A stretch of 64,000 nucleotides of DNA from Balanoglossus misakiensis (lineage: Eukaryota > Animalia > Hemichordata): positions 7,641,097 through 7,705,096 of the forward strand of contig CM082598.2 in assembly GCA_040954595.2 (NCBI GenBank), given 5' to 3'. The position numbers and the translations under genes are program-made. Shown here one piece after another: positions 10,333 to 62,000 of this stretch. The notes beneath the pieces are model-generated. The model made no database searches and was not told where the DNA came from. It saw nothing but the letters and a program-made list of their open reading frames with translations. How positions within the stretch are numbered: position 1 is the stretch's first letter; the number at the start of each line of letters is the position of its first letter.

Positions 10333-10776
10333 CAGAGTGGTTTAATTTGTAATTAACCATTACATACACTTCAGATAGGTCAGTATCTGCAGGATGGTCT
10401 TATACTGTATTTGGGTAATTCACTTTCTGTTATCTCATGCTAGATCTATGTCACAGATTCCATTCATTTATCTTTAGTTGTGTCACCTGTTGGTAGCCGT
10501 TTCTGCAATCACCATCTCCTCGTTGTACAGCCTGGTTATTGAGAAGACAGTAATGGTGGAGGGTGGTTTGGTGTATTGGCTTTGATTTCTCTGCAGGGCT
10601 TATAACAGTATGTGTGTACGGAACCTTTTCCTTGCACACACACATTACGTTACTCAGTTAAATTCTCAGACATTGCAACAAGTTCCATGGAAATACTGCC
10701 ATCGTTTGCCATACTAATCAGAAATTGTTATACTGATGTCACAATGGTCTGCTTCTGAGATGTTGATGTCATCATC

Positions 10777-12036
10777 TTAGGACGTTAGATGTAGATTAGC
10801 CATGTCACTTTCAACATCATGATGATCAGATGACACACCAAGTTTTCGGAACATTTCATGTATTTCTTCTCTGGCAGCGTAGACATCACAACTTTCTTGC
10901 TCAAGAATTTTAACCAGGTTGGAAAAATTGCTCTTACAGAATGTGTTATCTGCAGTTGGCTGTTGGCCTGCACTTTGTTGTCCTCCACAGCCCTTGGACC
11001 AAACAGATAAAGCATGTTGTGTGGGGGATTGAATCGATGCACTGTATTGCCATGAATCCACCTCCATGCGAGGGATCCCCATCAAGTCTGCCATAGCCCT
11101 GTAGTCATTGCCGGAAAAACGGATGATATCCATGATATTACAAAATATCTTGAGGGCATCCTTCAGCATCCACTTGACATCACTTTCATATCCACTGTGT
11201 CGGAGGATGGTTGTATCATACCCAGCACAAAGCAAGTCAGTAGCTGCTTCTGAAATCACCATCTCCTCGTTGTACACCTTCTCATTCCTCTCTTCTGCTT
11301 CCCAAATTTGCTTCAATGTATAGAATGTGACATCTTCAGGGTTGCGATGGTTTCGAAGAGAATCTGAACTCAAGACGTGGATGTCAAGTCTTGTGCCAGG
11401 ACAGCAGATGTCTAACACTTCATAGACAATATCAGTTATTGTCTCTAATAATTTGTAGCATTCCCCGATTTCCTCTTCTTTCTCTGCTCTAACACAAACA
11501 TGGATAGCTCTCCAACCTTTTGTCATATACACCAAGCATTCTGCATTGTGACACACTTTAATGCCATTTTTCCATATACCAGTTGTGTGTTGGTTGATCT
11601 TTCGGAAACGGCGTTCTATTCGGGTCTGAAGTCGCGGGAAAAATCCTGGCGAGAAACTATCAGCATCATCTCTGCATTGGAACCGTCTACCATAGTAAAT
11701 CTTCTTAGTAGCATCCTGTTTCCACTGATTTGCAGGCATATCTGTGTCCAACAACCCAGGTATTACATACCCAGCTACAGTATTGAATTCAGACATGACC
11801 TCGTAGAGAAGGTCAAACTCTTTGAGAAGATTTATCAGCAAATCAATATCTGCCAGACCATGGAACACTTTCTCAATTTCGCTTCTCATATGTAAGGACT
11901 TCCGCGGCAAGCGGTTTGCAAACTGCTCAAATATTTCAGGAGCCAGCATGGGACCGAATATTCTAGAACATAACCATTGGGGATCAAGAACAATGACGTC
12001 ATCTGAATTTGGTAGGGTACTCTCGATTTGGAGCAT
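10777..12036 (-). CDS. Roco last exon: COR domain plus death-domain-like C-terminus
   Basis: Acceptor ttattcacag|ATG; DDVIVLDPQWLCSRIFG, GRRFQC..DSFSPGFFPRLQ, IWKNGI, DYRAMADLMGI..SPTQHALSVW. Confidence 0.9.
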   Translation of the reverse strand: MLQIESTLPNSDDVIVLDPQWLCSRIFGPMLAPEIFEQFANRLPRKSLHMRSEIEKVFHGLADIDLLINLLKEFDLLYEVMSEFNTVAGYVIPGLLDTDMPANQWKQDATKKIYYGRRFQCRDDADSFSPGFFPRLQTRIERRFRKINQHTTGIWKNGIKVCHNAECLVYMTKGWRAIHVCVRAEKEEEIGECYKLLETITDIVYEVLDICCPGTRLDIHVLSSDSLRNHRNPEDVTFYTLKQIWEAEERNEKVYNEEMVISEAATDLLCAGYDTTILRHSGYESDVKWMLKDALKIFCNIMDIIRFSGNDYRAMADLMGIPRMEVDSWQYSASIQSPTQHALSVWSKGCGGQQSAGQQPTADNTFCKSNFSNLVKILEQESCDVYAAREEIHEMFRKLGVSSDHHDVESDMANLHLTS

Positions 12037-41000: not shown

Positions 41001-44000
41001 TTCAATGAGAAAACATTATAGATAGCACACAAATGTGAACATTAATACTTATTGGTGTCAGTGATACCAAACCAATAACCACATGACACAGTAATAATAT
41101 AATTGAGCATAATAGGCAGTAAAAATTATACCTGTCACATGATCTTTACTGAAAGCTTGTTCTTCAAACTCTGCATCTTGTCTCACTCTCTTCTGTTGTT
41201 TCATGGGAATCGGTATGTCTCTCAGTACTGGTCCCTTTCTCTTTCTTGACAATCTCTGTGCCTAACAAGTAACAAATATGAACAAGATTTTAATACTGAT
41301 CTGAATTTACGTGCAGGGTTGGGGTCACCGTGACCCGGTTTTGGATCAAAACATCCGACATTCCAACAGTGTTTCTAAACTCCCGAACACATTACATACA
41401 AAGTTACAGCCAAGCATTGTGTATGTGAATCCAACTACGGCCATTAACGCGCGTACAGTCCAACATTTATTCCTACTTCGTGTGTTCTCATCTTGGGTAA
41501 TTACAGTTACTAGTTACAATTTACACAATATCCATACAATACCCAAGTTAAATGGACTAAAAGTGAATGTTTATCAACAGCGACAACGCGACGAGCTCCG
41601 AAAAGCTGCTCTAGTATATGTGTCGTCTGCACACTTGTCATGGCGCCAAAGTTGACTACATCATACATGGTATATCGTGTATATGGAGTAGACCGAGACT
41701 CATTTCTGTTCAACGTTCTTACCTGTTCTGCCGTATACGTCGCCGGTATGGGGTCGGGATGGTCGCTTGTTGGTCCCTTCCTGCCTACGAAGTGGAGGCT
41801 ACAAATATAGGTGTCCTTTTTGACATTGTCGACGCCGAAACCCTGTCTCCCGCAAGCATAAATCCATTTTTGACATTTCAAAATATTTCGATGTGGCTTC
41901 GGAAATCGGATGAAGAAAACATCTTTCATTTCAACACGATCGGTGTACCTTGAGTCACTCGTGCAATGTCCGTAACAGCAATGTTTAGTAGCGCCCATCG
42001 CGGAAGTAAACCAAAACAAAGTTTTTAAAAAGTAAAAAGCGCAACGCTATCGCTACGTGCTTCGCTCAGTCGATGCTAATGTCCGCTTTTGTCCGCATTT
42101 CACTGTTGCCAGACCCTTGCGCACTCGCGCAAATCTATTTTTAGCGACATTGATAAAACCCTGGACTGTGCTATATTTGCGTGTCAGCTGACAGGTCTTC
42201 GCATTCATCAGAAGCTATCGTGCGTCGCTGAGATTTGATTCTTCATAAATGAAAATTATTTCATAACCATACCAAATAAAACATTTCCAGAAATTTAGAA
42301 GTTTGTAGACATTTCTGCTAGTTGTCTATTTAGTGTTGAGTCACGCTGAACTGCCAAATTTAACACAGACTCGCCGCCAGCACTCGAACAGTGTGTACTT
42401 CTTCTGCGAGTGTGTCCTGTAACTGCCTTATTTCGATAACCATTCAACAACAAATAGACGGTAAACGTTTATGCAATACCAATGGATTTATGTTTTAAAA
42501 TTGGTCGACAGTCAGGAAATATGCATGAACAATCGATTGATTGGATTCCCCAGCGATACTATTGTATCTTGTGATTTTTTGTAGTGAAACTGTGGAAATC
42601 GGCAGGCTGCATTGCCAGGTGTTCTGCACATGTGCAGTTCCTCTGTCTTGAAAGAAAAGTCAAATTTCACCAACTTATAAATGTGCATTCAGAAAATAAA
42701 CCCCAGATGTTTTCTTTGTGACCCAAAAAACTGCCAGTGTGATTTTGTGTTCAAATCCAAGCTATTATTATTTAAATTGACTTGTGATACCCTCTCTTAG
42801 CACAAAAAGCATAATTTCAGCCCCAAAATGGTTGCCATAAAAACATGTGATCACTAAATGGATATCATTTTTGTTCTTATTGAGCCAAAATACCCCTATG
42901 GTGAAATTTTTCTGGAAATCGGACCTATTATTATTAAAATTATTATTTTTATATAATTCTTTATTTAATTATTATTATTTAATCATTATTAACTTTATTG
43001 GGCCCTTATCACAACTTGGATATTGGTTTAATACCCAATAAAGTACATGGCACAACAAAAAAATTCGTCAAGAATCAAATTGAATATTCAATAAAACAGT
43101 ACAGAGACCATTCAACCCACATCACAAAATGAAGAAAAATAATTCTATACACAAACTCGTCCAGACTGCGGTACAGAACAAAGCAAAACAACAAGGCTTG
43201 TTACCAATGGGGCAGTGGGTCGCATTCTACTATTTGGAGTTCTTGTCATGACAGTTTAACCCCCCACCGCACCCCACCCACAAAACATTGGTTAAAATTG
43301 CCACCTTGCTCTCCGCCATGTAGGTCTGTGCCATTATCATAATCTTCAGTGTTTATCTTTAGTCCACAGTTGACAGGGCGTGGAAGGCTGGCTACAGAAA
43401 TGCTTGTTTGTAAGTTTATAAATTATATCTTGTAAATTACAACTTGATATTTACCGTACTTGCCCGGGTAAGAACCCCTGCTCGGACAAACGCCCCCCCC
43501 CCCTGGTTTTAGGGCCCATTTGAAGATCGAGGTCATATCCGGTCTAAAGCCCCCCCCCCCCCCCCGGGCCGAATATCCATTAAATTCTTGGAAATTTAAT
43601 AAAGTGCAATGCAAAAAAGGCGGATTTTCATCCCCAAAGTCACTAAAAGTGAAAAAAAAATGTATGATGATTTACTTTCGCGCTGAGTTACTAGTATATA
43701 TAGCCGCTCTAGAAAACATGACCTCAGACAGGTCCCTCGGGACCGTGCCTCGAATTCAACGATCATGTAGATGGACGCGCTGCCGCGTATGAGGTCACCG
43801 GGGAGCTTTCCAAAGCGGCCGCGTGGAGCTGCTTCAGTCCGTCCTCGACGCGAAACACCCAACATTGGAAGATCCCGACTTGGACTCGGAGAATGAACCA
43901 CTCAAAAATTCCGGTAGAGAAAGGCATGATTGCCACGATTAAGATAGATGTATTTACGTGCGTCCGTCCGTCGACGTCTAAGTATTAAATGCATGTGTGG

Positions 44001-47000
44001 GATCGACCATTTACCAATGTCCCGGTTAAACGGGATGTTTTGTCTGCGCCCATGGTGTCCCGATTAAACGGCGGCGACTGTAATATGTTTTCTGTATTTG
44101 ATTTATGGGTAAAAAACTTTTTATTATTTAATAAATACATTGTTTGACCGTGAAATGTTTGGCCATGTTATTTGCATTATTATTCACCCCTTCCTCGTGT
44201 CCCTAGGCCCTCATTTGCATAAATGTCGAGGTTGCGTCCGGGCTAAAGCCCCCCCCCCCCCCTGTTTTTTGCTAATCTATGGGCCCAGCACCAGGGGCTC
44301 TTACCCGGGCAAGTACGGTAATCTATTTTTATTATCTTATTTATAAGGTAAAGTGCTATAGTACCTTGCATATTCCATTTTCATGTCTGTGTCATTTCTG
44401 TCAAAGAATATGAATGTAGGGTTGCAAAACAAAATGTTCGTCATCAAACATAAATTTAAGTGCTTCGATAGTTTGCTATGCAGTATTACATTACTGACAA
44501 ATTAATTGATATCCCAAAAAAGTGTTACCACATCAATAGCATTAGTAGGTTCCTTTTTTGCCACCACCCCCCTCCCCCCCCCCCAAAAAAAAAAAAATCT
44601 GTCACAATTGTTTTAGATAGCTAACTTTGTTTGGTACAAGTATCTGTTTGAGAAGCCAAAATGTTTACTCTTCAAAACTACATTCGTCACAGGGTATATG
44701 ATAGTGAAGAAGATTCATACACCATGCCAGTGTTTGATGGGAGTGGCAGTTTCAGCTACCAAACTGTGTACTCATCTGATTCGGGATCTGTAAGTCTAGA
44801 TTTGAGATACGTTTATAACTCATAATTTTACACTTAGTCTAGTGAAACAATAGGTGATTCTAATGTATTAATATAGCTATTAATCAATGACACTTGCACT
44901 AACAGTAGCAAGTTTGATTTCCAGTAGTCGGAGGAAATGTTTAGAATTTGACATATTTTAAATAATGCATTTGTGCATAATTAGGGGTTATTACACGGAT
45001 TTTGGTCGTGATGTCCGTATTTCGACTCGTTGCGAAGCGCAACTCATCAAAATACTGACACACTCGAATACGACGCGTTATCGACCAAAATCCGTGTAAT
45101 AACCCCTTTATCATACATGCCTACCTATAAAACAGTACGATTTGCGAAAATGCGCCGAGAAAAACAATTTCAAATTTGAACTAGGCGCTGGGATCACGGC
45201 AGTAGCCATGTTGTGACGTATGATGTGTGGGCCGTAGTATAATTTTAAGGGGGTTGGCAGCTTTCATTACGATGGGCACATCCACATTCTAAATAAACTT
45301 GTCTACGTTCTCTTTCAAAATATCATGTTAACAATTATTTTGCATTGAGAATTTCGAAGAAGTAAAAATGAAACATTCAACATGGCAAAACCGCCAGCTT
45401 TGCAAACGTTATTTCAGCTTCTAATAACCGAATTTTACAACACCCCTCTCCACTAGCGTCCTATGCCCCGTACGTCGCTCGCACGCGCAGCGAACTGTCG
45501 TGCCGCGCATTCTCAAAAATTGTTCGAGACGCGGAGTGAAGATATATTGCACTCAGTGTAATACCGTAAAATATCGCGCTCAGTGTAATACCGTAAAATA
45601 TCTTCGGGGCGAGAACAATAGAAAGTGTTAAATACAGGCGTTGCATGTATGATAAAGCTGTAAACAATCAAGTGGTCAGGTGTTTCACTCAATGTAGTAC
45701 ACACACATACACACACACACATTGCACATGCAGAAAATTAATAAATTTTCCATAGGCTGATATGTGGCTGACATGAAGTGTTAGTGACATGTATTGATTA
45801 GGTAGGGGATTAGAACAGGTACCCCGATCCTTGTATGCTCTGTATGTGAGATCAGTGACAAAGTTGCTGATTGAGTTTGGTATGTGTGATCGTGGTCAGT
45901 GTTTTGTACATACTTTAATGAACAAACATAAAATTCTCATAACAGTACCTGCTGTTAATGCTGTTACAACAACTCGAACAGACAATAGTAATAGAAATAC
46001 CAGGCAATTTTGCTTTTGAGTAGCTTAAAATGATGTCATTGCGAATCCTGACTTCTGTCATAGCTTGTATTTACTCTAATCATGTGCAAAATCAATCAAA
46101 AGTTTTTTTCCCATAAATATTTTCTGACACTTTTTTTTGCTTTTTGCAGGTGTCCTCATCAGATCATCAGCATATGACAAAAAAGAAAATTAAAAAGTGA
46201 GTATAAGAGTAATCATAGACAGTGATCAACTTGTAGTACCTTTGACATCAAAAATTTGTTAAACTTGTAGGTTGATCACATGATACCCAGTTGTCAAATA
46301 ATTAACCACTAAAGAGTGTATTATTTAGCATTGACAGAACATTATACTCAAGATGTGTCTTATTTTGTCATGTTGATTTTTATTTTATAAAGATGAAAAA
46401 ATAATGTTTGATAACTGTTGTCAAATATCTGTTTGTACAGATTATGTCTTATAAATGCTATCAGTATCAATTACAAGATTACACAAATGTGGTAGACTCA
46501 TTCAAAAATATTTTGGGAAGCATTGACATTAGGCCTTTGCTATTTGATGTGTGTGTACCTCTTGAAAGTAAGTTTATCCTAGGCAAAATAAAGTGGATAT
46601 GATCAGCAATCATATGCAAATTATATGCTTCAGTTGGGCTATAGCAATAATGGTGCTATATTACACTTATATGTACATGTATAAGGTCATGAAAATGTTG
46701 TTGTAATGTTATTAGGGCCCAAGCGCAAGCCAGCGCTTGGGCCCTATTGGTTTCGTTGGGGTTTTTTAGGGCCCAAGCGCAAGCCAGCGCTTGGGCCCTA
46801 TTGGTTTCGTTGGGGTTTTTCTGTCTTTCCTTCTTTCTTTAGGGCCCAAGCGCTTGCTTGCGCTTGGGCCCTATTGGTTTCGTTGGGGTTTTTAGGGCCC
46901 AAGCGCTTGCTTGCGCTTGGGCCCTATTGGTTTCGTTGGGGTTTTTAGGGCCCAAGCGCGCAGCAGCGCTTGGGCCCTATTGGTTTCGTTGGAATTTTTC

Positions 47001-50000
47001 TTTCTTTCCGTCTTTATTCTCCTGTCAATTCTTCGGCCAACGAGATCTCTGAAACTACTGCAGGTACACTGCTCAAACTTGCTACAGTGGTCAAGGTCTA
47101 TGAGTAGATGTGCAGTGACTTGTGAATACTTAATTAGTCACGTGACCTGGCGGCCATATTGGATTTTCTGAAAAAATTAAAATCTCAGATCTCAGAAACT
47201 ACAAGTCAGATCGACTTCAAATTTGGCATGCAGGTAGACTACCTTCTACCCATCATTTTTGTAATTGGAAATTTTGCTACAGTGTTGCAGTTTTTTTGCT
47301 ACAATTTTTTTTCTGAAATCTGGCTTAAATTTCAAAAATCTTCTTCTCCAGAACCGGTGATAACCGAGACACGGGGTTTGGGGTATGTGGTCACCTAACT
47401 GATGTCTATCAAGTTTGCGAAGATCATTGTGATTGGTCGAAGATTATGGCGGCCATATTGGATTTTCGAAAAACCATAGTTAAACTCCAAAAATCTTCTT
47501 CTCCAGAACGGGCGATGACTGAGTCGCAAGATTCAGGGAGTATGGTCACTACACTGATGTCTATCAAGTTTGCAAAGAACATTGTGATTGGTCGAAGATT
47601 ATGGTGGCCATATTGGATTTTGTAAAAAGCAGTGAAAAATTGAAATTCCTTTTTCTAGTCTAAAAATTGATAGCATACAAATTCTTTTTATGGATATCAA
47701 TCGTCATGTGACTAAAATATGTTACAATTTTTTGGCGATTTTTCACATGACCTTTGACCTACTTATCACGCGTTATTATTTCTGCATATCTAATTCCAGG
47801 TTAAACTATAGGGCTAGACGTTTGGTTTTTGATGAATGTGGATTAGTGTGTGATCAAAATATTTTGCTACTTTTCATGACCCCTTTGACCTCTGCTGACC
47901 TCATTAATTATGTGCATAGCTAATTACAGGCGAACCAATAGAGCTAGAGGTTTGGTTTTGTTGGACATGGACCAGTATGGGATCAACATTTTTTGCCCAA
48001 ATGTTGGGTGACCTCTGGTGACATTTGACCTACTTTCGCATATCTCAGCATCCAGAGCAGATACAGCCATGGCATTTGGTAGGATGGGACCAAAATGTAA
48101 AGCCACATTTTTGGGTCACCTGTGACACCTGCTGACCTCATTAAATATGCACATACCTAATTACAGGCGAACCAATAGAGCTAGAGTTTTGGTTTTTGTT
48201 GGACATGGACCAGTATGGGTAAAAAAAAATTGCCCAAATGTTGGGTGACCTCAGGTGACCTTTGACCTACTTCACCCTATTTCAGCAGCAAAAATACACA
48301 CATCCTCGTTATGTCATGAGATAATACATCCGATAGAAAATTCTGTTTCTTCTCATTCATACTGTGCATATATAATTCAAGATCAGCGCTTGGGCCCGAC
48401 AATGCTGCTCGCAGCTTTAATTCTTTCTTTCTTTCTTTTTTCTTGTGTCAATTCTTCGGCCAACTAAATCTCAGAAACTACTGCAGGTACACTGCTCAAA
48501 CTTGCTACAGTGGTCAAGGTCAATGAGTAGATGTGCAGTGACTTGTGAATACGTAATTAGTCACGTGACCTGGCGGCCATATTGGATTTTCTGAAAAAAT
48601 GCAAATCTCAGATCTCAGAAACTACAAGTCAGATCGACTTCAGATTTGGTGTGCAGGTAGTGTACCTTCTGCCCATCATTTTTGTAATTGGATATTTTGC
48701 TGTCAATGTTGCAGTTTTTTTGCTACAGTTGTTTTTCTGAAATCTGGTCAAAATTTCAAAAATCTTCTTCTCCAGAACCGGTGATAACCGAGACACGAGG
48801 TTTGGGGTATGTGGTCACCTAACTGATGTCTATCAAGTTTGCGAAGATCATTGTGATTGGTCGAAGATTATGGCGGCCATATTGGATTTACGAAAAACCA
48901 TAGTTAAACTCCAAAAATCTTCTTCTCCAGAACGGGCGATGACTGAGTTGCAAGATTCGGGGAGTATGGTCACTACACTGATGTCTATCAAGTTTGCAAA
49001 GAGCATTGTGATTGGTCGAAGATTATGGCGGCCATATTGGATTTTGTAAAAAGCAGTGAAAATTTGAAATTCCTTTTTCTAGTCTAAAATTTGATAGCAT
49101 ACAAATTGTTTTTATGGATATCAATCGTCATGTGACTAAAATATGTTACAATTTTTTTGTGATTTTTCACATGACCTTTGACCTACTTATCACGCGTTAT
49201 TATTTCTGCATATCTAATTCCAGGCTAACCTATAGGGCTAGACGTTTGGTTTTTGATGAATGTGAATTAGTGTGTGATCAAAATATTTTGCTACTTTTCA
49301 TGACCCCTTTGACCTCAGCTGACCTCATTAATTATGTACATAGCTAATTACAGGCGAACCAATAGAGCTAGAGGTTTTGTTTTTGTTGGACATGGACCAG
49401 TATGGGATCAAATTTTTTTGCCCAAATGTTGGGTGACCTCTGGTGACCTTTGACCTACTTTCTCATATCTCAGCATCCAGAGCAGATACAGCCATTGCAT
49501 TTGGTAGGATGGGACCAAAATGTAAAGCCAAATTTTTGGGTCACCTGTGACACCTGCTGACCTCATTAAATATGCACATACCTAATTACAGGTGAACCAA
49601 TAGAGCTAGAGTTTTGGTTTTTGTTGGACATGGACCAGTAAGGGTAAAAAAAAATTGCCCAAATGTTGGGTGACCTCAGGTGACCTTTGACCTACTTCAC
49701 CCTATTTCAGCAGCAAAAATACCCACATCCTTGTTATGTCATGAGATAATACATCCGATAGAAAATTCTGTTTCTTCTAATTCATACTGTGCATATATAA
49801 TTCAAGATCAGCGCTTGGGCCCGACAATGCTGCTCGCAGCTTTAATTCTTTCTTTCTTTCTTTCTTTCTTTCTTTTTTCTTGTGTCAATTCTTCGGCCAA
49901 CTAAATCTCTGAAACTACTGCAGGTACACTGCTCAAACTTGCTACAGTGGTCAAGGTCTATGAGTAGATGTGCAGTGACTTGTGAATACTTAATTAGTCA

Positions 50001-53000
50001 CGTGACCAGGCGGCCATATTGGATTTTCTGAAAAAATGCAAATCTCAGATCTCAGAAACTACAAGTCAGATTTACTTCAAATTTGGTGTGCTGGTAGTGT
50101 ACCTTCTGCCCATCATTTTTGTAATTTGATATTTTGCTGTCAATGTTGCAGTTTTTTTGCTACAGTTGTTTTTCTGAAATCTGGTCAAAATTTCAAAAAT
50201 CTTCTTCTCCAGAACCGGCGATAACTGAGACACAGGGTTTGGGGTATGTGGTCACCTAACTGATGTCTATCAAGTTTGCGAAGATCATTGTGATTGGTCG
50301 AAGATTATGGCGGCCATATTGGATTTTCGAAAAACCATAGTTAAACTGCAAAAATGTTCTTCTCCAGAACGGGCAATGACTGAGCCGCAAGATTCGAGGA
50401 GTATGGTCACTACACTGATGTCTATCAAGTTTGCAAAGAGCATTGTGATTGGTCGAAGATTATGGCGGCCATATTGGATTTTGTAAAAAGCAGTGAAAAA
50501 TTGAAATTCCTTTTTCTAGTCTAAAAATTGATAGCATACAAATTCTTTTATGGATATCAATCGTCATGTGACTAAAATGTGCTACAATTTTTGGGCGATT
50601 TTTCACATGACCTTTGACCTACTTATCACGCGTTATTATTTCTGCATATCTAATTCCAGGCTAACCTGTAGGGCTAGACGTTTGGTTTTTGATGAATGTG
50701 GATTAGTGTGTGATCAAAATATTTTGCTACTTTTCATGACCCCTTTGACCTCTGCTGACCTCATTAATTATGTGCATAGCTAATTACAGGCGAACCAATA
50801 GAGCTAGAGGTTTGGTTTTTGATGGACATGGACCAGAATGGGATCAAAATTTTTTGCCCAAATGTTGCATGACCTCTGGTGACCTTTGACCTACTTTCGC
50901 ATATCTCAGCATCCAGAGCAGATACAGCCATGGCATTTGGTAGGATGGGACCAAAATGTAAAGCCACATTTTTGGGTCACCTGTGACACCTGCTGACCTC
51001 ATTAAATATGCACATACCTAATTACACGCAAACCAATAGAGCTAGAGTTTCGGTTTTTGTTGGACATGGACCAGTATGGGTAAAAAAAAATTACCCAAAT
51101 GTTGGGTGACCTCAGGTGACCTTTGACCTACTTCACCCTATTTCAGCAGCAAAAATACACACATCCTTGTTATGTCATGAGATAATACATCCGATAGAAA
51201 ATTCTGTTTCTTCTCATTCACACTGTGCATATATAATTCAAGATCAGCGCTTGGGCCCGACAATGCTGCTTGCAGCTTTAATTCTTTCTTTCTTCTTTCT
51301 TTATTCTTATGTCAATTCTTTGTCGCTCTAGATCTCAGACACCACTGCAGGTACACTTCTCAAACTTGCTACAGTGGTCAAGGTCAATGGGTAGTCGTGC
51401 ATTGAACTCTTGAATTTTTAATTAGTCACGTGACATGGCGGCCATATTGGATTTTCTGAAAAAATGCAAATCTCAGATCTCAGAAACTACAAGTCAGATT
51501 TACTTCAAATTTGGTGTGCTGGTAGTGTACCTTCTGCTCATCATTTTTGTAATTTGATATTTTGCTGTCAATGTTGCAGTTTTTTTGCTACAGTTGTTTT
51601 TCTGAAATCTGGTCAAAATTTCAAAAATCTTCTTCTCCAGAACCGGCAATAACCGAGTCACGCGGTTTGGGGTATGTGGTCACCAAACTGGGGTCTATCA
51701 AGTTTGCGAAGATCATTGTGATTGGTCGAAGATTATGGCGGCCATATTGGATTTTCGAAAAACCCTAGTAAAATTTCAAAAATCTTCTTCTCAAGAACCG
51801 GCGATAATTGAGTCACAAGATTTGGTGTGTGTGGTCATGAAACAGATGTCTATCAAGTTTGCGAAGAGGAATGTGATTGGTCGAAGATTATGGCGGCCAT
51901 ATTGGATTTTATGAAAAACAATTAAAAAGTAAAAATTCCCTTTCTAGCCTAAAAATTGATAGCACAGAAATTCTTTTTATGGATATGAATCATCATATGC
52001 CAAGAATAAGCTATAAATATTTTGGTAATTTTGGCAATGACCTTTGACCTACTTTTGACGCATCATTTTTCTGCATATCTAATTCCAGGCTAACCAATAC
52101 GACTATAAGTTTGGTTTTTGATGTATGTGGATTTGTATGTGATCAAAAAATTTTGCTACTTTTCATGACCCCTTTGACCTCTGCTGGCCTCATTAAATAT
52201 GCACATACCTAATTACAGATGAACCAATAGACCTGGAGGTTTTGTTTTTGTTATACATGGACCAGTATGGAGTCAAAATATTTTGCCCAAATGTTGGGTG
52301 ACCTCGGGTGACCTTTGACCTACTTTAGCTTATCTCAACATCCACAGCAGATACAGCCTTGGCATTTTGGAGGTATGGGGCCATAATGAAAAGCCAAAGT
52401 TTTGGGTCACCTGTGACACCTGCTTAACTCATTAATTATGTGCATACCTAATTCCAGGCTAACCAAAAGGGCTAGAGGTCTGGTTTTTGTTGGACATGGA
52501 CCACTATGGGTCAAAATATTCTGCCCAAATTTTGGATGACCTCAGATGACCTTTGACCTACTTTTACATATCTTGGCATCCAAAGCAGGTACAGCCTTGG
52601 CATTTAGAGGTATGGGGCCATAATGAAAAGCCAAAGTTTTGGGTAACCTGTGACACCTGCTTACTCATTATTTATGTGTATACCTAATTCTGGGCTAACC
52701 AAAAGGGCTAGATATCTGGTTTTTGTTGGACATGGACTACTATGGGTCACAATTTTCTGCCCAAATTGTGGGTGACCTCTGGGTGACCTTTGACCTACTT
52801 AACACTTTATCAACACCAAGCATAGTTATAACCTTGATATTTTATGGGGTAAAACACAGCATTATGTTTCTACTCATTAATTATGTGCATATCTAATAAT
52901 CAGATCAGATAATAGAGCTTGGGCCCGGACAATGCTGCTTGCAGCTTTAATCTGTCTTTCCTTCTTTCTTTAGGGCCCAAGCGCATACCAGCGCTTGGGC

Positions 53001-56000
53001 CCTATTGGTTTCGTTGGGGTTTTTCTGTCTTTAGGGCCCAAGCCAAGCCAGGCTTGGGCCCTATTGGTTTCGTTGGTATTTTTCAGTCTTTCTTTCTTTC
53101 TTTATTCTTATGTCAATTCTTTGTCGCTCTAGATCTCAGACACCACTGCAGGTACAGTTTTCAAACTTGCTACAGTGGTCAAGGTCAATGAGTAGTCGTG
53201 CATTGAACCCATGAATTTTTAATTAGTCACGAGACCTGGCGGCCATATTGGATTTTCTGAAAAAATGCAAATCTCAGATCTCAGAAACTACAAGTCAGAT
53301 CGACTTCAAATTTGGCGTGCAGGTAGACTACCTTCTGTCAATCATTTTTGTAATTGGAAATTATGCTGACAAAGTTGCAGTTTTTTTGCTACAATTTTTT
53401 TTCTGAAATCTGGTCAAAATTTCAAAAATCTTCTTCTCCAGAACCGGCGATAACTGAGTCACGCGGTTTGGGGTATGTGGTCACCAAACTGGGGTCTATC
53501 AAGTTTGCGAAGATCATTGTGATTAGTTGAAGATTATGGCGGCCATATTGGATTTTCGAAAAACCCTAGTAAAATTTCAAAAATCTTCTTCTCAAGAACC
53601 GGCAATAACTGAGTCACAAGATTTGGTGTGTGTGGTCATTAAACATATGTATATCAAGTTTGTGAAGAGGAATGTGATTGGTCGAAGATTATGGCGGCCA
53701 TATTGGATTTTGTGAAAAACGATTAAAAAGTAAAAATTCCCTTTCTAGCCTAAAAATTGATAGCACAGAAATTCTTTGTATGCATATGAATCATCATATG
53801 CCAAGAATAAGCTACAAATATTTTGGTAATTTTGGCAATGACCTTTGACCTACTTTTGACGCATCATTTTTCTGCATATCTAATTCCAGGCTAACCTTTA
53901 AGGCTATCATTTTGGTTTTTGATGTATGTGGATTTGTATGTGATCAAAAAATTTTGCTACTTTTCATGACCCCTTTGACCTCTGCTGACCTCATTAAATA
54001 TGCACATACCTAATTACAGATGAACCAATAGACCTAGAGGTTTTGTTTTTGTTATACATGGACCAGTATGGGGTCAAAATATTTTGCCCAAATGTTGGGT
54101 GACCTCGGATGACCTTTGACCTACTTTGGCATATCTTGACATCCACAGCAGATACAGCCTTGGCGTTTGGAGGTATAGGGCCATAATGAAAAGCCAAAGT
54201 TTTGGGTCACCTGTGACACCTGCTTAACTCATTATTTATGTGCATACCTAATTCCGGGCTAACCAAAAGGGCTAGAGATCTGGTTTTTGTTGGACATGGA
54301 CCACTATGGGTCAAAATATTCTGCCCAAATTTGGGGTGACCTCTGGGTGACTTTTGACCTACTTTACACTATGTCAACACCAAACCTAGATATAACCTTG
54401 ATATTTCATGGGATAAAACACAACATTATGTTTCTACTCATTAATAATGTGCATAACTAATAATCAGATCAGATAATAGAGCTTGGGCCCGGACAATGCT
54501 GCTTGCAGCTTTAATTCTTTCTTTCTTCTTTCTTTATTCTTCTGTCATTTCTTTGTCGCTCTAGATCTCAGACACCACTGCAGGTACAGTTCTCAAACTT
54601 GCTACAGTGGTCAAGGTCAATGAGTAGTCGTGCATTGAACCCATGAATTTTTAATTAGTCACATGACCTGGCGGCCATCTTGGATTTTCTGAAAAAATGC
54701 AAATCTCAGATCTCAGAAACTACAAGTCAGATCGACTTCAAATTTGGCGTGCAGGTAGACTACCTTCTGGCAAACATTTTTGTAATTGGAAATTATGCTG
54801 TCAATGTTGCAGTTTTTTTGCTACAGTTGGTTTTCTGAAATCTGGTCAAAATTTCAAAAATCTTCTTCTCCAGAACCGGCAATAACCGAGTCACGCGGTT
54901 TGGGGTATGTGGTCACCAAACTGAGGTCTATCAAGTTTGCGAAGATCATTGTGATTGGTCGAAGATTTTGGCGGCCATATTGGATTTTCGAAAAACCCTA
55001 GTAAAATTTCAAAAATCTTCTTCTCAAGAACCGGCGATAACTGAGTCACAAGATTTGGTGTGTGTGGTCATTAAACAGATGTCTATCAAGTTTGCGAAGA
55101 TGAATGTGATTGGTCGAAGATTATGGCGGCCATATTGGATTTTGTGAAAAACGATTAAAAAGTAAAAATTCCCTTTCTAGCCTAAAAATTGATAGCACAG
55201 AAATTCTTTTTATGGATATGAATCATCATATGCCAAGAATAAGCTATAAATATTTTGGTAATTTTGGCAATGACCTTTGACCTACTTTTGACGCATCATT
55301 TTTCTGCATATCTAATTCCAGGCTAACCAATAGGGCTATAAGTTTGGTTTTTGATGTATGTGGATTTGTATGCGATCAAAAAATTACGCTACTTTTCATG
55401 ACCCCTTTGACCTCTGCTGACCTCATTAAATATGCGCATACCTAATTACAGATGAACCAATAGACCTAGAGGTTTGGTTTTTGTTGGACATGAACCAGTA
55501 TTGGGTCAAATTTTTTGCCCAAATGTTGGGTGACCTCGGATGACCTTTGACCTACTTTTGCATATCTCGACATCCACAGCAGATACAGCCTTGGCGTTTG
55601 GAGGTATGGGGCCATAATGAAAAGCCAAAGTTTTGGGTCACCTGTGACACCTGCTTAACTCATTATTTATGTGCATACCTAATTCCGGGCTAACCAAAAG
55701 GGATAGAGGTCTGGTTTTTGTTGGACATGGACCACTATGGGTCAAAATTTTCTGCCCAAATTGTGGGTGACCTCTGGGTGACCTTTGACCTACTTAACAC
55801 TATATCAACACCAAACATAGATATAACCTTGATATTTCATGGGATAAAACACAGCATTATGTTTCTACTCATTAATTATGTGCATATCTAATAATCTGAT
55901 CAGATAATACAGCTTGGGCCCGGACAATGCTGCTTGCAGCTTTAATTCTTTCTTTCTTCTTTCTTTATTCTTATGTCAATTCTTTGTCGCTCTAGATCTC

Positions 56001-59000
56001 AGACACCACTGCAGGTACACTTCTCAAACTTGCTACAGTGGTCAAGGTCAATGGGTAGTCGTGCATTGAACTCTTGAATTTTTAATTAGTCACGTGACAT
56101 GGCGTCCATATTGGATTTTCTGAAAAAATGCAAATCTCAGATCTCAGAAACTACAAGTCAGATTTACTTCAAATTTGGTGTGCTGGTAGTGTACCTTCTG
56201 CCCATCATTTTTGTAATTTGATATTTTGCTGTCAATGTTGCAGTTTTTTTGCTACAGTTGTTTTTCTGAAATCTGGTCAAAATTTCAAAAATCTTCTTCT
56301 CCAGAACCGGCGATAACCGAGTCACGCGGTTTGGGGTATGTGGTCACCAAACTGGGGTCTATCAAGTTTGCGAAGATCATTGTGATTGGTCGAAGATTAT
56401 GGCGGCCATATTGGATTTTCGAAAAACCCTAGTAAAATTTCAAAAATCTTCTTCTCAAGAACCGGCGATAACTGAGTCACAAGATTTGGTGTGTGTGGTC
56501 ATTAAACAGATGTCTATCAAGTTTGCGAAGAGGAATGTGATTGGTCGAAGATTATGGCGGCCATATTGGATTTTATGAAAAACAATTAAAAAGTAAAAAT
56601 TCCCTTTCTAGCCTAAAAATTGATAGCACAGAAATTCTTTTTATGGATATGAATCATCATATGCCAAGAATAAGCTATAAATATTTTGGTAATTTTGGCA
56701 ATGACCTTTGACCTACTTTTGACGCATCATTTTTCTGCATATCTAATTCCAGGCTAACCAATACGACTATAAGTTTGGTTTTTGATGTATGTGGATTTGT
56801 ATGTGATCAAAAAATTTTGCTACTTTTCATGACCCCTTTGACCTCTGCTGGCCTCATTAAATATGCACATACCTAATTACAGATGAACCAATAGACCTGG
56901 AGGTTTTGTTTTTGTTATACATGGACCAGTAAGGAGTCAAAATATTTTGCCCAAATGTTGGGTGACCTCGGGTGACCTTTGACCTACTTTAGCTTATCTC
57001 AACATCCACAGCAGATACAGCCTTGGCATTTTGGAGGTATGGGGCCATAATGAAAAGCCAAAGTTTTGGGTCACCTGTGACACCTGCTTAACTCATTAAT
57101 TATGTGCATACCTAATTCCAGGCTAACCAAAAGGGCTAGAGGTCTGGTTTTTGTTGGACATGGATCACTATGGGTCAAAATATTCTGCCCAAATTTTGGA
57201 TGACCTCAGATGACCTTTGACCTACTTTTACATATCTTGGCATCCAAAGCAGGTACAGCCTTGGCATTTAGAGGTATGGGGCCATAATGAAAAGCCAAAG
57301 TTTTGGGTAACCTGTGACACCTGCTTACTCATTATTTATGTGTATACCTAATTCTGGGCTAACCAAAAGGGCTAGATATCTGGTTTTTGTTGGACATGGA
57401 CTACTATGGGTCACAATTTTCTGCCCAAATTGTGGGTGACCTCTGGGTGACCTTTGACCTACTTAACACTTTATCAACACCAAGCATAGTTATAACCTTG
57501 ATATTTTATGGGGTAAAACACAGCATTATGTTTCTACTCATTAATTATGTGCATATCTAATAATCAGATCAGATAATAGAGCTTGGGCCCGGACAATGCT
57601 GCTTGCAGCTTTAATTTATAATCTATTTCTAATGTCAAACTTTTCTTTGTCATATATTTTGCATAGAAGAAAGATCAATGCAATCAGAAGACCAAACATG
57701 TGCTCCATGGTAACTGAATCTGACTCTGAGGTAGGTTTATTTTATTTTCTTCTATGTGATTATTGAAATTAACTTCTCAACCTGGAGAATGATGCTTAGT
57801 GATTGACACATGGTTTGTGTCTGGTCAGGATGACATTGGCCTAGCATATGTAGTCTAGATATTCTTATGAAACTGGAGGTTAATTTTATCCATTAAAACT
57901 TTTACTTTCTTACAGATTGAAAATCTTGTAAGTAGTCTTGAGAATACACCAGTGAAGAAAAACTGGAAGCACCAGACTGAGAAAAGTGAAGGACAAAGAA
58001 GGCCAAGGTATTTCTCAAAAAACTGTGATTTTGAAGATCTAAGTCAGACATATCACAATATCAGTAGTGCGGACCCCACCAAATAGCCATTATCTTAAGC
58101 TTGTTGTATGTGGAGATGTTGAGGCTTATTTATGTGGGTATCTCCCATGAAAGTTATTTACAGATATGTGCCGTCTGGATGGTTTCATAAGAAATTTAAA
58201 TCTCTAAACCTGATGGGTCCTCTGTTTTCCTTAAAACCCAGAAGTCATGGGTTTCTACGTGATTGTTTTTATTACTCAGGGATGTTACGTGTAATGTCAT
58301 GTGAAAAGAAGCAACTTATTTGCATACAATTATGGAATAATTTTAGTATAATATTGTGTTTTGGTACCAAATGATTGTACGCAGACCCCAGTTCTCTGTG
58401 TTTTATGAAGAACTCAGCTGTACACATATATATTTAATATTGAATGCAGGGTTTTCGCTAAGCGCCGGCCACCGGCCATTTGGCCGGCTACTTGCACTGA
58501 ACTGGCCGTCTACTTTTCCTTAACCCATTAGGGTTATTTTTATTTTTATACTCTTTCACGCTCATTGTAAGCAGATATTTATCAATCGCTCGAGTGAAAA
58601 AAAGTTCAATTCGAATGTTTCCTATTTAAAATCAACAATCTTGTAGAGAAAATGGTCATTGCCGATCGAACGTGGCCAAATATATAGCGTTGCGTCGCGT
58701 CACCAGGTCACCTCGATCGAACGGAACGCACGATGCGTTGGCGTGATTATATCACATCCGGGACATACTAAGTAATTATAATTATGACGTCAGGGTAATG
58801 AGTCACACTTTCAAACAGATTCCGTTATGGCGTCCTCGAGGCGGACGGGAAGTGGGGGTCCGCCTAAATGGCGAAAAATTGAAGAGTTCCTGTTAAAAGG
58901 TAAGCTTTGAGTTGAGTTTGGAAGTCATGGACCCTTTTGAAAGAGTTTTGACGAGGGTTTCATTGATTTTTTTAACAAAAACTAAGCAAAGAACTTCATC

Positions 59001-62000
59001 ATCGGGCATCATTTTGGTCGACGATCACTGCATGCAACTTGCCAGCGATCGAGAGATAGACGTTGATTTTGTGGTATTACTAACCTGAATTTTATTTTGC
59101 ATGTACATGTGACTTTTAAAGAACTTAGTTTGTATCACTATCTACCAATAATTTAATTTATATATGATTTCAGTCGATGAATAGCAGTGCGCAGTTTACC
59201 TCACAGCCTGAAACTCGGGGGGGGGGGGGGGTGACGTCAGCGTATAATAAGTTTATGTGCGCCAGCTGATTGGTTACAATCAGTTGAGGATTGATATTTT
59301 CTTTTTAATTGTTTAGTTTTTCTGATATTTTTCTGTTCCATTGTTTTTCAGGATAAGTTTTCTAAAGACAGTGTAAGTAATAAAATTTTGCCTGTCACTG
59401 TCTAATGTAATTGTTGTTTTAGTTGCACCTACTACTAGTAATTTCTCTTTTCTTTGTAAACTTCCTTGTACTAGTCTAGTCTAGTTGCCTATTTAGTACC
59501 AATAGCTACCTAAGTCAAAGATAATATGCATGTTTTTCAAGTGTTGCTTAGTTGCCAAAGACTAGCTATTTGCTTCGCCATTCACAGTTATACTTGCATC
59601 AGTATTTTCGATTGCCTATCAAATTTTTAAGTAAATAACTTGGGTAATTTGCTCCCTAAGTGTTATTGTATTGGTAGAGTCTAGTGGTGATCTTGATAAT
59701 TATGTTGGCATTTCAATGATTTGTCCGGATTCTTCATCTTCCAATATCAATCTCTTTATTTTTCAGATGGCGCATCATGTGAAACGTCCGAGTCCTCAGG
59801 CTCATGTACATCTTCAGTTGAAAAGGACACACAGGTGACGCCCACGACTACTAGTACGAGTGAAAATACTTGTAGTATGACAAAACCACCAGATGAAGAC
59901 AAAACAAAGATGCCACATGACATGTAAGTTAATTGTGTAGTTTTGATATGTAGTCATGGGGATGATAAACCTTTTATTCTACCAGGAATGAGGATGGTAC
60001 AGTAGTTGAATCCCGAAACCCGTTTCAAATGTTTTATTCAATGTATTCCTATTCAATTTAATCAATGTAAATGTATTCCGATTTCTTTTCTTTCTAGGAG
60101 TGCAACAAGTGGAGGATGCCGGTGCCCTTTTGCCCCTGATGATGCTGTCAATATCATTTCTGAACTTTTTGCTGCAGACAGAGACACTAAAATCCATAAC
60201 TACTTCATATGTAACAAAAACATGTGTAATGCTGTCACACAATGTTGTAAATCTGTTCTTGGTAGCAAGAAGTTTCATCATGATAAGTTTATTACTGCCA
60301 AGTATTGGTGGTTAGTTTTCAAAGAGGATCAGTGTGCTGAAAATTGTGGGATGTATTGTTTTGTTTGTAAAAAACATCAGATGGCGAACCCCCAAAACAA
60401 AAGTGAGAAATTCTGCAGTAAGCCAAGTATCCGCTTCAAGTATGATGCAGTAAATACCCATGCAACTGGAGGAGTTCATACAGCTGCAATGCAGAATGAA
60501 ATCCTCCAGCATATGTCACCATTCCACCAGGAAAATTTCCAGAGAAAGGCAGTTCGAAACTCTGTCTACAACAAAGCTTTTGGCACTGCCTATTTCATAA
60601 TGTCTAATTACATAGCCAATAGAGTATTTGTTCCATTGATAGAGTTTGCAGAAACTGTGTTACATGTCCCAGACTTAAAATACTTTGACCACAAGTCAGT
60701 TGCATCATATCGAGAAATACTTGTCTTACTAGGCAGGACCCTGAAACAGAAAATAACTGACAGTGTGGGATGCCGTGACAGTTTTGGATTAATGACAGAT
60801 GAAGTCACTGACATATCTGTTAGCCAACAGTTGGTGACATTCATTCAGTATTTTGATAAAGCAATAGGTTCTGTGCAAACAAAATTCTTGTCCAGTCAAG
60901 ATATCTTAGTCGAATATAATTCAGCTAATGCTAATGCTATATATTCCTTGCTGAAAAAAGAAATAGAATCTAATGATCTGTCAGTGAAAAACTGTAAGGG
61001 GTTGTCAACAGATGGGGCTGCTGTCATGGTTGGCAGTAGAAATGGTGTTGCAAGCAAATTTAAGTCTGACAATAATTTGATCATAAGTGTGCATTGTGTT
61101 TGCCACAGGTTAGCATTGGCTTGTACTGACAGTAACACAAACTTAAAGTATGTGAAGGATGTGTCCACAATACTTCGGCAGCTTTGGCAGTTCTTCGAAA
61201 ATTCCCCAAAGAGGTTAGCAGCATACCTGAAAATGCAAGAAAAGCTTGCAAAAATAAAGTTAACCTCTGACAAGAGTCAGAAAATTGTCATGCACAGACT
61301 TAAAAAAGCTTGCAGCACCAGGTGGTTGAGTTTCAATCTAGCTGTAGAGGCAACTCTGAGGGATTTTGAGGCATTGCTCCTTACTCTGAATGACTTTGAA
61401 GATGATGCACTTGCCTGTGGCCTGCTAAAGAATATAAAGTCGGTTAAATTTGTTGGCACATTGTATATATTGCAGTCTGTATTGCCCATTTTGTCAGAGC
61501 TTTCTCTTGTGTTTCAAAGAGATCAAGTTAACTTCTCCCTCATTGCAAGCATGGTTTCAGCAACTAAAGATAAACTGAAACAGATTCTCAGTGATAATGT
61601 GCCAATAAATAAGTTTGTGTCTGATATTGACTCATTCACAAATATATCTTCTGAGCTATGTTTCCAGGGCAGCGGCAAGCTTGATCTTGAAAGTCTGATG
61701 AGAAAGTACATTGATGCTCTCATAGAGAATATAGATAGTAGGTTTGCTGAGTCATCTCCAGTGCTCACTGCACTGTCTGTCTTTGACCCATTGAGTATGC
61801 CAAGTAAAGAAAATGCAACTTTTAGTTCATATGGGGAAGCACATATCAAAGTACTAGCTGATCACTTTTACCAAAATGAGGAAGTTCCTGTAAAAGAAAA
61901 CAAAACACAGAAATTAGTGAATGAGTTTACACAACTTAAATACTACTATGTAGATTACATGAAGGCAAATATGCCTATTGATGTTGGAGAATGTAAAGGC

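Follow-up and report, generated by a model that had tools for sequence, protein, structure and literature searches.

A nest of seven likely Helitron2/Helentron-type elements in the hemichordate Balanoglossus misakiensis

Known elements and known nests

The closest described systems are the non-autonomous Helitron2 (HLE2) elements and the HINE/DINE-1 group. In the passages on their structure, Helitron2 elements begin with T and have a 5' ATIR that lies 0-2 bp from the end and is part of a 5' hairpin; one of them, Helitron-1N1_CRe, inserts between TTTT and T/C with no target site duplication (TSD) (PMC3627910). The target of HINE/DINE-1 elements is given as TT, also without a TSD (PMC4067079). 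The nest described here has features of both. As in non-autonomous Helitron2/HLE2 (Bao and Jurka 2013, PMC3627910; HELIANO, PMC11417382), its elements have a 5' T, a 5' ATIR 2 bp from the end within a hairpin and a 3' ATIR 24-25 bp from the end upstream of a hairpin, with ATIRs of 10-13 bp. Like Helitron-1N1_CRe, they are inserted between two Ts or between T and C without a TSD (PMC3627910). They differ in that deep nests, or a hot spot carried by the element itself, are absent from the structural passages of these two papers.

With HINE/DINE-1 (PMC4067079, PMC2374699) and the oyster Cg_HINE (PMC7492417), as outlined in those papers, the nest elements share a 5' subTIR, an inverted repeat, a 4-base microsatellite, central tandem repeats, a 3' subTIR and a 3' stem-loop, as well as a TT or T-rich target and a non-coding body. 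Unlike in HINE/DINE-1, the microsatellite consists of (TCTT)n instead of GTCY and is used as a landing site, and in one clade of the nest (clade B) the subTIRs match over only 10 bp. The words 'nest' and 'inserted' do not occur in the main text of the oyster paper (PMC7492417), nor does 'nested' in the main text of the DINE-1 paper. Among the matches listed in a literature search on three terminal motifs, none was on transposons.

Is insertion of such elements into their own kind known? Self-insertion of Helitron2 elements has already been proposed. In Fusarium, insertion of FoHeli (Helitron2-type) into itself near the 5' end was put forward as the origin of copies with several 5' termini, the duplicated 5' pieces being shorter than 200 bp (PMC5148889), and self-insertion was also proposed for nested maize Helitrons (PMC3288121). 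In the relevant passages of these papers, it was deduced for the most part from end products that have a single 3' end, and from single nested cases. By contrast, the intermediate is intact here, with five layers on one arm; what is new is its 14 intact termini and its exact empty site. MITE multimers in rice and maize (Jiang and Wessler 2001, as summarised in PMC5172404) and TE dimers formed by site preference (10.1101/158386) offer a further parallel, since independent insertions into or beside relatives build multimers and seed satellite-like arrays. In those accounts, however, the target is mostly renewed by the TSD, giving tandem dimers or shallow nests, whereas the elements of the present nest have no TSD and renew the target by bringing it with them.

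Structure of the nest

The nest occupies positions 46713-57615 (+ strand; 10,903 bp) of the window, the whole 64-kb stretch of DNA that was analysed. Its seven heads start at 46713, 46767, 46840, 46893, 46946, 52971 and 53032, and its seven tails end at 48421, 49846, 51282, 52951, 54515, 55946 and 57615; the window holds no further heads or tails outside it. A preliminary description had placed the tail ends at the same sites or up to two bases further on, which is within the ambiguity of the terminal T, and had proposed that heads and tails balance like nested brackets. The parse is exact. Read last-in-first-out, it recovers all seven predicted pairs (H5-B1, H4-B2, H3-B3, H2-B4, H7-B5, H6-B6 and H1-B7), and the seven rebuilt elements, of 1476-1742 bp each, sum to 10,903 bp. 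All 14 termini are intact, and all six guests have the orientation of their host and exactly the ends of the outermost element.

The outermost element, E1 (clade B, 1742 bp rebuilt), is in three pieces. The first (46713-46766) comprises the 5' T, a hairpin with the 5' subTIR, a spacer and a 5-T run; the hairpin is 34 bp long, with a 14-bp stem and a 6-base loop (DNA fold -18.7 kcal/mol). At offset 54, between T and C, E1 is interrupted by E2 (clade B), whose head and first part of the pyrimidine tract fill 46767-46839. The kinship noted earlier between H1 and H2 and between B4 and B7 extends to the whole elements: H1-B7 and H2-B4 each rebuild to 1742 bp and differ by 7 substitutions and no indels. 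E3 (clade A, 1489 bp rebuilt; head 46840-46892) lies between two Ts at offset 73 of E2, and its loop is almost an inversion of the one in E1 and E2. E4 (clade A, 1478 bp rebuilt), with a head identical to that of E3 (46893-46945), lies in E3 at offset 53, and E5 (clade A, 1476 bp) in E4, also at offset 53, both between two Ts. E5 is unbroken, with head, tract, body B1 and tail at 46946-48421. Its central tandem repeat, two units of 155 bp (47325-47628), has an equivalent pair in all seven bodies. Its 3' end (48388-48421) has a subTIR ending 24 bases from the terminus, a short GC stem-loop and a terminal T, a layout that recurs at the six other tails, from 49846 to 57615.

Behind E5 follow the remainders of E4 (48422-49846: (TCTT)n tract, B2, tail), of E3 (49847-51282: (TCTT)n tract, B3 with a 212-base run identical to B7, tail) and of E2 (51283-52951: tract, long body B4, tail); B4 has one extra repeat unit of ~237 bp (array 52189-52819). 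The tract of E1 then resumes, as had been noticed, for 19 bases between guests E2 and E6 (52952-52970), in exact agreement with the corresponding stretch of E2. E6 (clade B, 1492 bp rebuilt; head 52971-53031) lies between two Ts at offset 73 of E1, the offset of E3 in E2, in agreement with the earlier observation; its loop variant is common in a public run (places 46782-46783). E7 (clade B, 1484 bp), unbroken at 53032-54515, lies between two Ts at offset 61 of E6 and has a stem one pair shorter on both arms. The remainder of E6 (54516-55946: tract, B6, tail) is followed by the third piece of E1 (55947-57615), with its tract, the long body B7 (~237-bp array 56853-57483) and the outermost tail, whose boundary is fixed by the empty allele described below.

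Class of the elements

To which class do the elements belong? By their termini, all seven are likely to be of the non-autonomous Helitron2/Helentron (HINE) type. Each starts with T and has its subTIR from base 3, with stems of 13-14 bp (-16.1 to -18.7 kcal/mol). At all seven 3' ends, an ATIR match of 10-13 bp ends 24-25 bases from the terminus and is followed by a 5-bp GC inverted repeat; the short 3' hairpin is present in the lowest-energy fold of five of the seven tails. Insertion follows the Helitron2/HLE2 rule, between two Ts or between T and C with no TSD at the empty site, and once guests are removed a run of five Ts stands behind the head in all seven elements (four intact, three rebuilt). 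The order of modules, with a (TCTT)n tract, internal repeats of 155 bp and ~237 bp and no coding sequence, is HINE/DINE-1-like. The 5' arm is identical over at least 11 bases in six of seven heads, and 5' and 3' subTIRs match over 12-13 bp in clade A and 10 bp in clade B; a published threshold for one family is an identical subTIR of at least 11 bp (Thomas et al. 2014).

The longest stop-free frames in the bodies reach about 100 codons; none of the five scanned had a Pfam match, and they are taken as chance and not as genes. No RepHel domain was found in the 38 frames scanned of the 81 listed for the window.

Canonical Helitron1 (HLE1) elements have 5'-TC and 3'-CTRR ends and insert between A and T. 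This class was rejected, as the ends here are 5'-TA and AAT-3' and the targets lie between two Ts or between T and C. Cut-and-paste MITEs, which start and end with inverted repeats and are flanked by a TSD, were rejected as well: the 3' repeat lies 24-25 bases inside the end and the empty site shows no duplication.

Relationships among heads and bodies

Could the array have formed by local tandem duplication or as a rolling-circle concatemer? Bodies (a unit of ~1.43 kb) and heads (a unit of 53 bp) would then have multiplied separately, and the seven-to-seven balance would be chance; of the 3432 possible orders of seven heads and seven tails, 429 are balanced. Clustering of bodies by adjacency, which the preliminary description had named as the mark of such an origin, is found in part: the bodies group as B1-3 and B4-7, with B5 next to B6 in kinship, and the two larger groups are contiguous (2 of 35 arrangements). 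The identical heads H3 and H4, and likewise H1 and H2, resemble tandem copies of 53-54 bp. However, satellites and rolling-circle arrays consist of head-to-tail units with neighbours most alike; here, contiguous clades notwithstanding, the closest bodies, B4 and B7 (99.57%), lie apart while adjacent pairs differ by 3.5-5% or 14%, and none of the six inner tails directly precedes a head. The resumed 19-base tract and the seven 5-T runs are exact under nesting only. If the two unbroken pairs are kept as they are, H1 and H2 fall on B4 and B7, and H3 and H4 on clade-A bodies, in 4 of 120 assignments. Serial pairing would place H1 and H2 on clade-A bodies, contrary to a solo contig that joins an H2-type head tract to the start of a clade-B body, as nesting predicts. 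Duplication is thus largely refuted as an explanation, and we regard it as highly improbable. Parse, empty allele and solo contig agree with the earlier proposal of successive nested insertion, and the nesting of seven elements is well supported.

Other claims of kinship fared less evenly. B2 and B3 start alike, as had been stated, but overall (96.4%) they are no closer than B1 and B2 (96.5%) or B1 and B3 (96.3%). The idea that the hairpin loop marks each subfamily is true only in part: H7 has the 6-base loop of H1 and H2, but B5, the body that belongs to it, is closest in grouping to B6, and the loop in the head of B6 is a different one. The bodies are also mosaic: besides the identical run in B3 and B7, columns ~110-345 lose the clade split. 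Recombination or conversion has thus acted, and the clock given by the 0.4% between E1 and E2 may have been reset.

Some inner layers may have arrived as pre-built blocks. The clustering by adjacency, together with the fact that five of six guests share the clade of their host, is also compatible with a real nest that was partly assembled elsewhere, E3-E4-E5 or E6-E7 having come whole, so that few local targeting events would be needed. Such a block could have arrived by read-through of an inner 3' end, or through ectopic gene conversion in which the donor was a homologous copy with a block at the same offset. Clade A does form one contiguous inner block, end branches are 0.015-0.025 for inner bodies versus 0.002-0.003 for B4 and B7, the mosaic tracts speak for exchange between copies, and composite Helitrons moving with several termini have been proposed in passages of the Fusarium and maize papers (PMC5148889, PMC3288121). 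However, read-through from H3 to T3 must cross two 3' ends that are intact. Under the published model, copies should have many heads but a single tail; in this nest the two balance. E1 and E2 hold different guests at offset 73, which a single conversion would not give, and insertion into a 5' tract somewhere is still needed to build the blocks. Partial assembly elsewhere is on these points unlikely.

Insertion sites and target choice

All six inner insertions lie 19-39 bp behind the 5' hairpin of the host, on the same strand; among all seven insertions, six targets are between two Ts and one is between T and C. If every TT were equally likely to be used, six guests would all fall within a tract of 28-51 bp with a probability of ~3e-8 when both strands are counted and 8e-7 when only the top strand is; both figures are post hoc, the pattern being the reason why the locus was chosen. 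All six guests are in the 5' tract although each element offers, elsewhere, 8-13 runs of at least five Ts and 7-9 of at least five As. As this tract is the longest pyrimidine run in every element, a plain preference for T-rich DNA could also explain its use. The outermost insertion lies in ordinary AT-rich DNA, which indicates that a tract of its own is not essential to the family.

Do the elements home to themselves? It had been claimed that they insert just downstream of their own hairpin, into their own microsatellite. Use of the T-rich tract stands in all six cases, but homing as a dedicated mechanism is not established, and three of the six guests are in the microsatellite while the other three are in the 5-T run in front of it. 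We think that the tract is chosen as a long T-rich run adjoining a stable hairpin that the transposase recognises; choice by base composition alone and binding to the resident end are about evenly balanced. True self-homing is possible, though less likely than not: the transposase would be tethered by the 5' hairpin of the resident copy and insert 19-39 bases behind it, each insertion would supply the next target, and nests would grow autocatalytically, within the lifetime of one segregating allele, into satellite-like blocks of at least 10 kb with a readable order of arrival.

Empty allele and public sequencing runs

One 3327-base contig of public run X1 joins both flanks, skipping exactly 10,903 bp. 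Its positions 1-501 correspond to 46211-46713 and its positions 499-1331 to 57614-58446, with a 3-letter overlap. The skipped length equals the sum of the seven elements and there is no target duplication; at the three sites inside the microsatellite, duplication of one unit is possible. Bridging both flanks without the nest, this contig represents an empty allele, on the basis of one contig from one sample. In run X2, a contig of 180 bases departs from the left flank at 46713 and is absent from the listed right-flank pieces. As a clock, the flanks are soft (22/1334 overall, 14/501 on the left piece alone), their divergence being not clearly below 3.6%. An allele with only some of the layers was not seen among the run contigs, which prove nothing on this point. 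Loose ends behind the tail in the public runs show mixed AT-rich flanks, with an agreement of ~0.5; one X2 consensus starts microsatellite-like, too weakly to count.

A misjoin of near-identical copies or of two haplotypes during assembly is scarcely credible. E1 and E2 are 99.6% alike, and the single sample compared, with flank haplotypes that differ from those of the window, did not show the filled allele. However, six of the seven bodies are at least 3.5% away from those next to them, all junctions coincide precisely with element ends, and the gap to an independent empty allele has the length of the seven elements together. Head-in-head junctions also occur in a public run.

Such junctions are frequent. 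A head-in-head junction shorter by one T accounts for 20,886 of the summed depth of 113,831 at its position in X1 (4 contigs) and for 45,166 of 217,908 in X2 (11 contigs), compared with single-locus contig depths of 41-62 and 112-347, respectively; such sums do not give copy number and would be inflated by many-headed copies that move as units. One loose end carries, at the offset-61 site, a head whose stem differs from that of H7; in another, an H2-type tract leads into a clade-B body. The many further head-in-head junctions in the same run indicate that the nesting habit is not local. Public run X3 contained next to no matching words, and exact head and tail patterns had no match in metagenome contigs, prokaryote genomes or viral contigs.

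A model for growth of the nest

How did the nest form? The seven complete, non-coding Helitron2/Helentron-type elements were probably brought together by successive insertions made by a transposase, each at a T in the host's own pyrimidine tract behind the 5' hairpin. A RepHel transposase encoded elsewhere would mobilise the copies in trans by rolling-circle transfer and insert them between two Ts or between T and C on the T-rich strand, which would fix their orientation. Each new copy would carry a fresh tract and thereby renew the target, with heads stacking on the left and headless bodies on the right. The donors would be several diverged copies and not one local master, since the guests differ by 3.5-5%, compared with 0.4% for the two outer layers.

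Significance

For annotation, such nests mimic satellites of 1.4 kb and 53 bp, and repeat finders would missplit them. To our knowledge, nothing more specific than 'TT in T-rich DNA' has been established for target choice by the Helitron2/Helentron transposase; a hot spot that lies 19-39 bases behind an element's own hairpin is a defined substrate on which composition, DNA structure and the resident end can be set against each other. The nest is the intact intermediate predicted by the Fusarium and maize models of many-headed Helitrons. The empty allele means that a block of seven elements and 10.9 kb can be a presence/absence difference between copies of a chromosome. Nesting of this kind is a route from dispersed elements to satellite-like arrays without TSDs or unequal exchange.

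Structure of the nest and its empty allele

Scanned for motifs, the entire window yields seven element heads (5' hairpin ends), H1 to H7, starting at 46713, 46767, 46840, 46893, 46946, 52971, and 53032, and seven tails, T1 to T7, ending at 48421, 49846, 51282, 52951, 54515, 55946, and 57615. All are on the + strand, and the rest of the window contains no head or tail outside this block (46713-57615). The pairs that the preliminary description had predicted are those returned by a stack parse: H5-T1, H4-T2, H3-T3, H2-T4, H7-T5, H6-T6, and H1-T7. The rebuilt elements, E1 (outermost) to E7, are 1742, 1742, 1489, 1478, 1476, 1492, and 1484 bp long; together they add up to 10,903 bp, which is the block span. 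E1 and E2 differ by seven substitutions and no indels. When the guests (inserted elements) are removed, an identical run of five Ts follows the head in seven of seven elements (four intact, three rebuilt); thus, the joints at these runs are precise. Under nesting, E1 would have arrived first, followed by E2 and E6 in either order, with E3 after E2, then E4 and E5, and E7 after E6.

Is there a chromosome without the nest? A run search with 57400-60000 returned three runs of one sample, with the stretch present in two (shares 0.73 and 0.62). The data of the two runs, X1 and X2, are assembled contigs; they probably come from another individual, since their haplotypes at the flanks are unlike that of the window. 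Letters 1-501 of an X1 contig (3327 bases, depth 61.9) fit 46211-46713 with 14 other letters and a 2-base gap, and letters 499-1331 of an X1 record of equal length, depth, and strand fit 57614-58446 with eight other letters and no gap. Three contig letters match both flanks, and the skipped length (57614 - 46711 = 10,903) is the sum of the seven elements. The nest is thus missing to the base from one allele, with no duplication, in one contig of one sample, and the boundaries of this empty allele fix the outer termini independently of the stack parse. Bridging of the empty site is absent among the X2 pieces listed, and no partly filled allele was seen among the run contigs. The filled allele is that of the window, and it is highly improbable that the nest is an assembly artefact. 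At 58446, the empty-allele contig departs from the window, which makes a further presence/absence difference nearby (58447-58565).

Element anatomy and subfamilies

Every element starts with a T, followed by a stem of 13-14 bp with a six-base loop. These 5' hairpins (-16.1 to -18.7 kcal/mol, DNA parameters) contain the 5' subterminal repeat and are followed by a short spacer, the run of five Ts, and a (TCTT)n-type tract. Within the body, a 155-bp unit occurs twice and a unit of ~237 bp two or three times. The subterminal repeat on the 3' side matches over 10-13 bp and ends 24-25 bases before the terminus, followed by a short GC stem-loop. Stop-free frames in the block reach ~100 codons. The five in-block frames scanned have no Pfam match, and no domain of RepHel, the transposase of the putative autonomous partner, was found in the 38 frames scanned of the window's 81 listed.

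Bodies B1-3 (clade A) are 96.3-96.5% identical to each other and B4-7 (clade B) 95-96%, but B4 and B7 reach 99.57%; identity across the clades is 85-86.5%. Tree support is 100/100 for the A/B split, 100/99 for B4+B7, and 95/96 for B5+B6. The bodies are mosaic, and the split disappears at alignment columns ~110-345, where B2 is near B4/B7, B1 shares variants with B5/B6, and B3 (49847-51282) and B7 are identical over a run of 212 bases. This segment points to exchange between subfamilies.

Does the hairpin loop mark each subfamily, as had been proposed? Only imperfectly. H1 and H2 are alike in loop, but H7 has the same loop although its body, B5, groups with B6. Likewise, B2 and B3 have a common loop (that of H3/H4) but are no closer to each other than to B1. 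Apart from one base, the H3/H4 loop (46840-46926) matches the reverse complement of the H1/H2 loop (46713-46800); across the whole hairpin, 33 of 34 bases are complementary. The loop appears to have flipped between the hairpin arms. In H7, one pair has been lost, on both stem arms simultaneously.

Genomic surroundings

With a GC content of 38.6%, a Roc-COR gene, retroelement remnants, and DNA transposases, the window looks like repeat-rich animal DNA. The Roc and COR-B domain gene (9721-15571, -) has its last ~200 codons twice in tandem (9721-10341 and 10777-12063). Retroelements include a non-LTR reverse-transcriptase fragment (1957-3432, +), an LTR retrotransposon broken into several frames with zinc knuckle, RNase H, and integrase (20605-25303, -), and a second RNase H fragment (4976-5254, -). 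A YqaJ-domain frame (+) faces a THAP frame and a DDE_Tnp_4 frame (both -) at 37218-42046, a layout that recalls ISL2EU-type Harbinger relatives. An apparently unbroken open frame of 837 codons (60006-62519) encodes a hAT-type transposase (Dimer_Tnp_hAT, DUF4371, zf-C17orf113). Further repeats are a 157-bp tandem unit in 8.1 copies (18868-20134) and a dispersed repeat with G/C runs, in two copies of opposite orientation (~9300-9620 and 43500-44290).

A 65-base stretch that is AG-bounded and precedes a GT lies ~50 bases downstream of the nest end (57617-57731); a branch-point-like motif is present near 57628, and another acceptor-like site at 57916 (57917 onward). The nest may be inside an intron, near a small exon.

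A self-carried insertion hot spot

The six guests lie at host offsets 54, 73, 73, 53, 53, and 61, which is 19-39 bases behind the host hairpin, three in the run of five Ts and three in the microsatellite. Five of these insertions are at T|T and the remaining one at T|C. Counting both strands, 16-22 of a host's 315-383 TT sites are within the tract, and the post hoc probability that all six guests fall there is ~3e-8 (8e-7 for the top strand alone). None of the 8-13 further T-runs and 7-9 A-runs of at least five per element was used. Since the tract is also the longest pyrimidine run of each element (15-39 bases), a preference for pyrimidine runs and a pull by the hairpin give the same prediction here; the remaining 53 kb of the window has one pyrimidine run of at least 20. 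The outermost element inserted into ordinary AT-rich DNA, and the flanks of family tails elsewhere in the run are mixed. Within one-by-one insertion, composition and hairpin tethering are about even as the target cue, and hairpin-guided homing is judged less likely than not. A Helitron-like family of Coates et al. 2010 reportedly disrupts (GAAA)n microsatellites, the same repeat as (TCTT)n on the other strand, and may be close prior art.

Head-in-head junctions are also spanned by X1 and X2 contigs, although the traced allele of that sample lacks the nest. A form of the junction with one T fewer than H1|H2, as at H3|H4 and H4|H5, reaches a summed depth of 20,886 over 4 X1 contigs and 45,166 over 11 X2 contigs, with single-locus contigs at 41-62 and 112-347, respectively. 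At the two head places, this junction contributes ~6.5% of the depth in X1 and in X2 alike; summed contig depth is not copy number, and we take the figure to mean no more than tens to hundreds of these junctions. If TT sites were used at random, ~1e-5 to 4e-4 would be expected (assuming 1000-5000 copies and a 0.3-1 Gb genome). The depth could be inflated by local head arrays or by many-headed copies that moved as units. At one loose end, a head occupies the offset-61 site, and its stem is unlike that of H7. A second loose end passes from an H2-type tract directly into a clade-B body start, the pairing that nesting, but not serial pairing, predicts for H1/H2. At its two variant positions in the run, 28-38% of the depth carries the H6 loop, which is therefore a family variant rather than a local change.

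At loose ends before 57581, 21 X1 and 16 X2 contigs are alike only in their last ~35 bases (upstream agreement 0.48-0.64). Other families share this 3' end, and one of them may be the autonomous partner. In another contig, 57614 is joined to 58540 (ends TT..TT); the tail of the nest's family abuts the repeat at 58540, placing a family member inside another copy of that repeat.

How was the nest built?

The nested order, intact ends, single orientation, lack of a TSD, empty allele, and junctions elsewhere are all observed, and the nest was probably built mostly by one-by-one insertion. A RepHel enzyme, supplied in trans, would copy diverse donors and insert at a T on the T-rich strand; every new copy would carry its own tract, renewing the target.

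Alternatively, the inner layers may have arrived by block transfer, which is unlikely, with body clustering by adjacency and the match of five of six guests to the host clade (2 of 35 arrangements) in its favor. Such clustering, named beforehand as a sign against nesting, is present (B1-3 and B4-7), while the near-identical B4 and B7 are not neighbors. Activity waves, local re-insertion (E2 alone fits), or pre-built blocks may each account for it. Duplication or a concatemer is very unlikely. Guests differ by 3.5-5.0%, above the allele flanks (22/1334, 1.65%; Fisher P 0.0025 to 1e-6) and far above E1/E2 (0.40%). This divergence argues for donors that had probably already diverged, and not for duplication in place. 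However, the left flank alone has 14/501 differences, the right flank may contain exons, and conversion could have levelled E1 and E2.

Relation to known elements

The termini agree with the Helitron2 definition in excerpts of PMC3627910 and PMC11417382; in the former excerpt, Helitron-1N1_CRe inserts between TTTT and T/C without a TSD. The modules are arranged as in HINE/DINE-1 and oyster Cg_HINE, as far as excerpts of PMC4067079, PMC2374699, and PMC7492417 describe them. On the basis of termini and target, and not of a partner, the block is best classified as a nest of non-autonomous Helitron2/Helentron elements.

Several short 5' termini in FoHelis have been attributed to self-insertion (PMC5148889), as likewise proposed for maize Helitrons (PMC3288121, in excerpt). 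Excerpts of other sources report MITE self-insertion second-hand (PMC5172404), TE dimers arising through site preference (10.1101/158386), oyster Helitron loci that are shuffled, along with rolling-circle arrays from Xiong et al. 2016 (both in a review, PMC12628747), and HINEs as a main source of 2-4-kb structural variants in bivalves (a preprint, 10.64898/2026.02.10.705023). Among the openly accessible main texts searched, no listed paper describes intact nests of this depth whose hot spot lies behind the 5' hairpin. Self-insertion is already known in outline; what this locus adds is depth, a narrow hot spot carried by the elements themselves, and an exact empty site.
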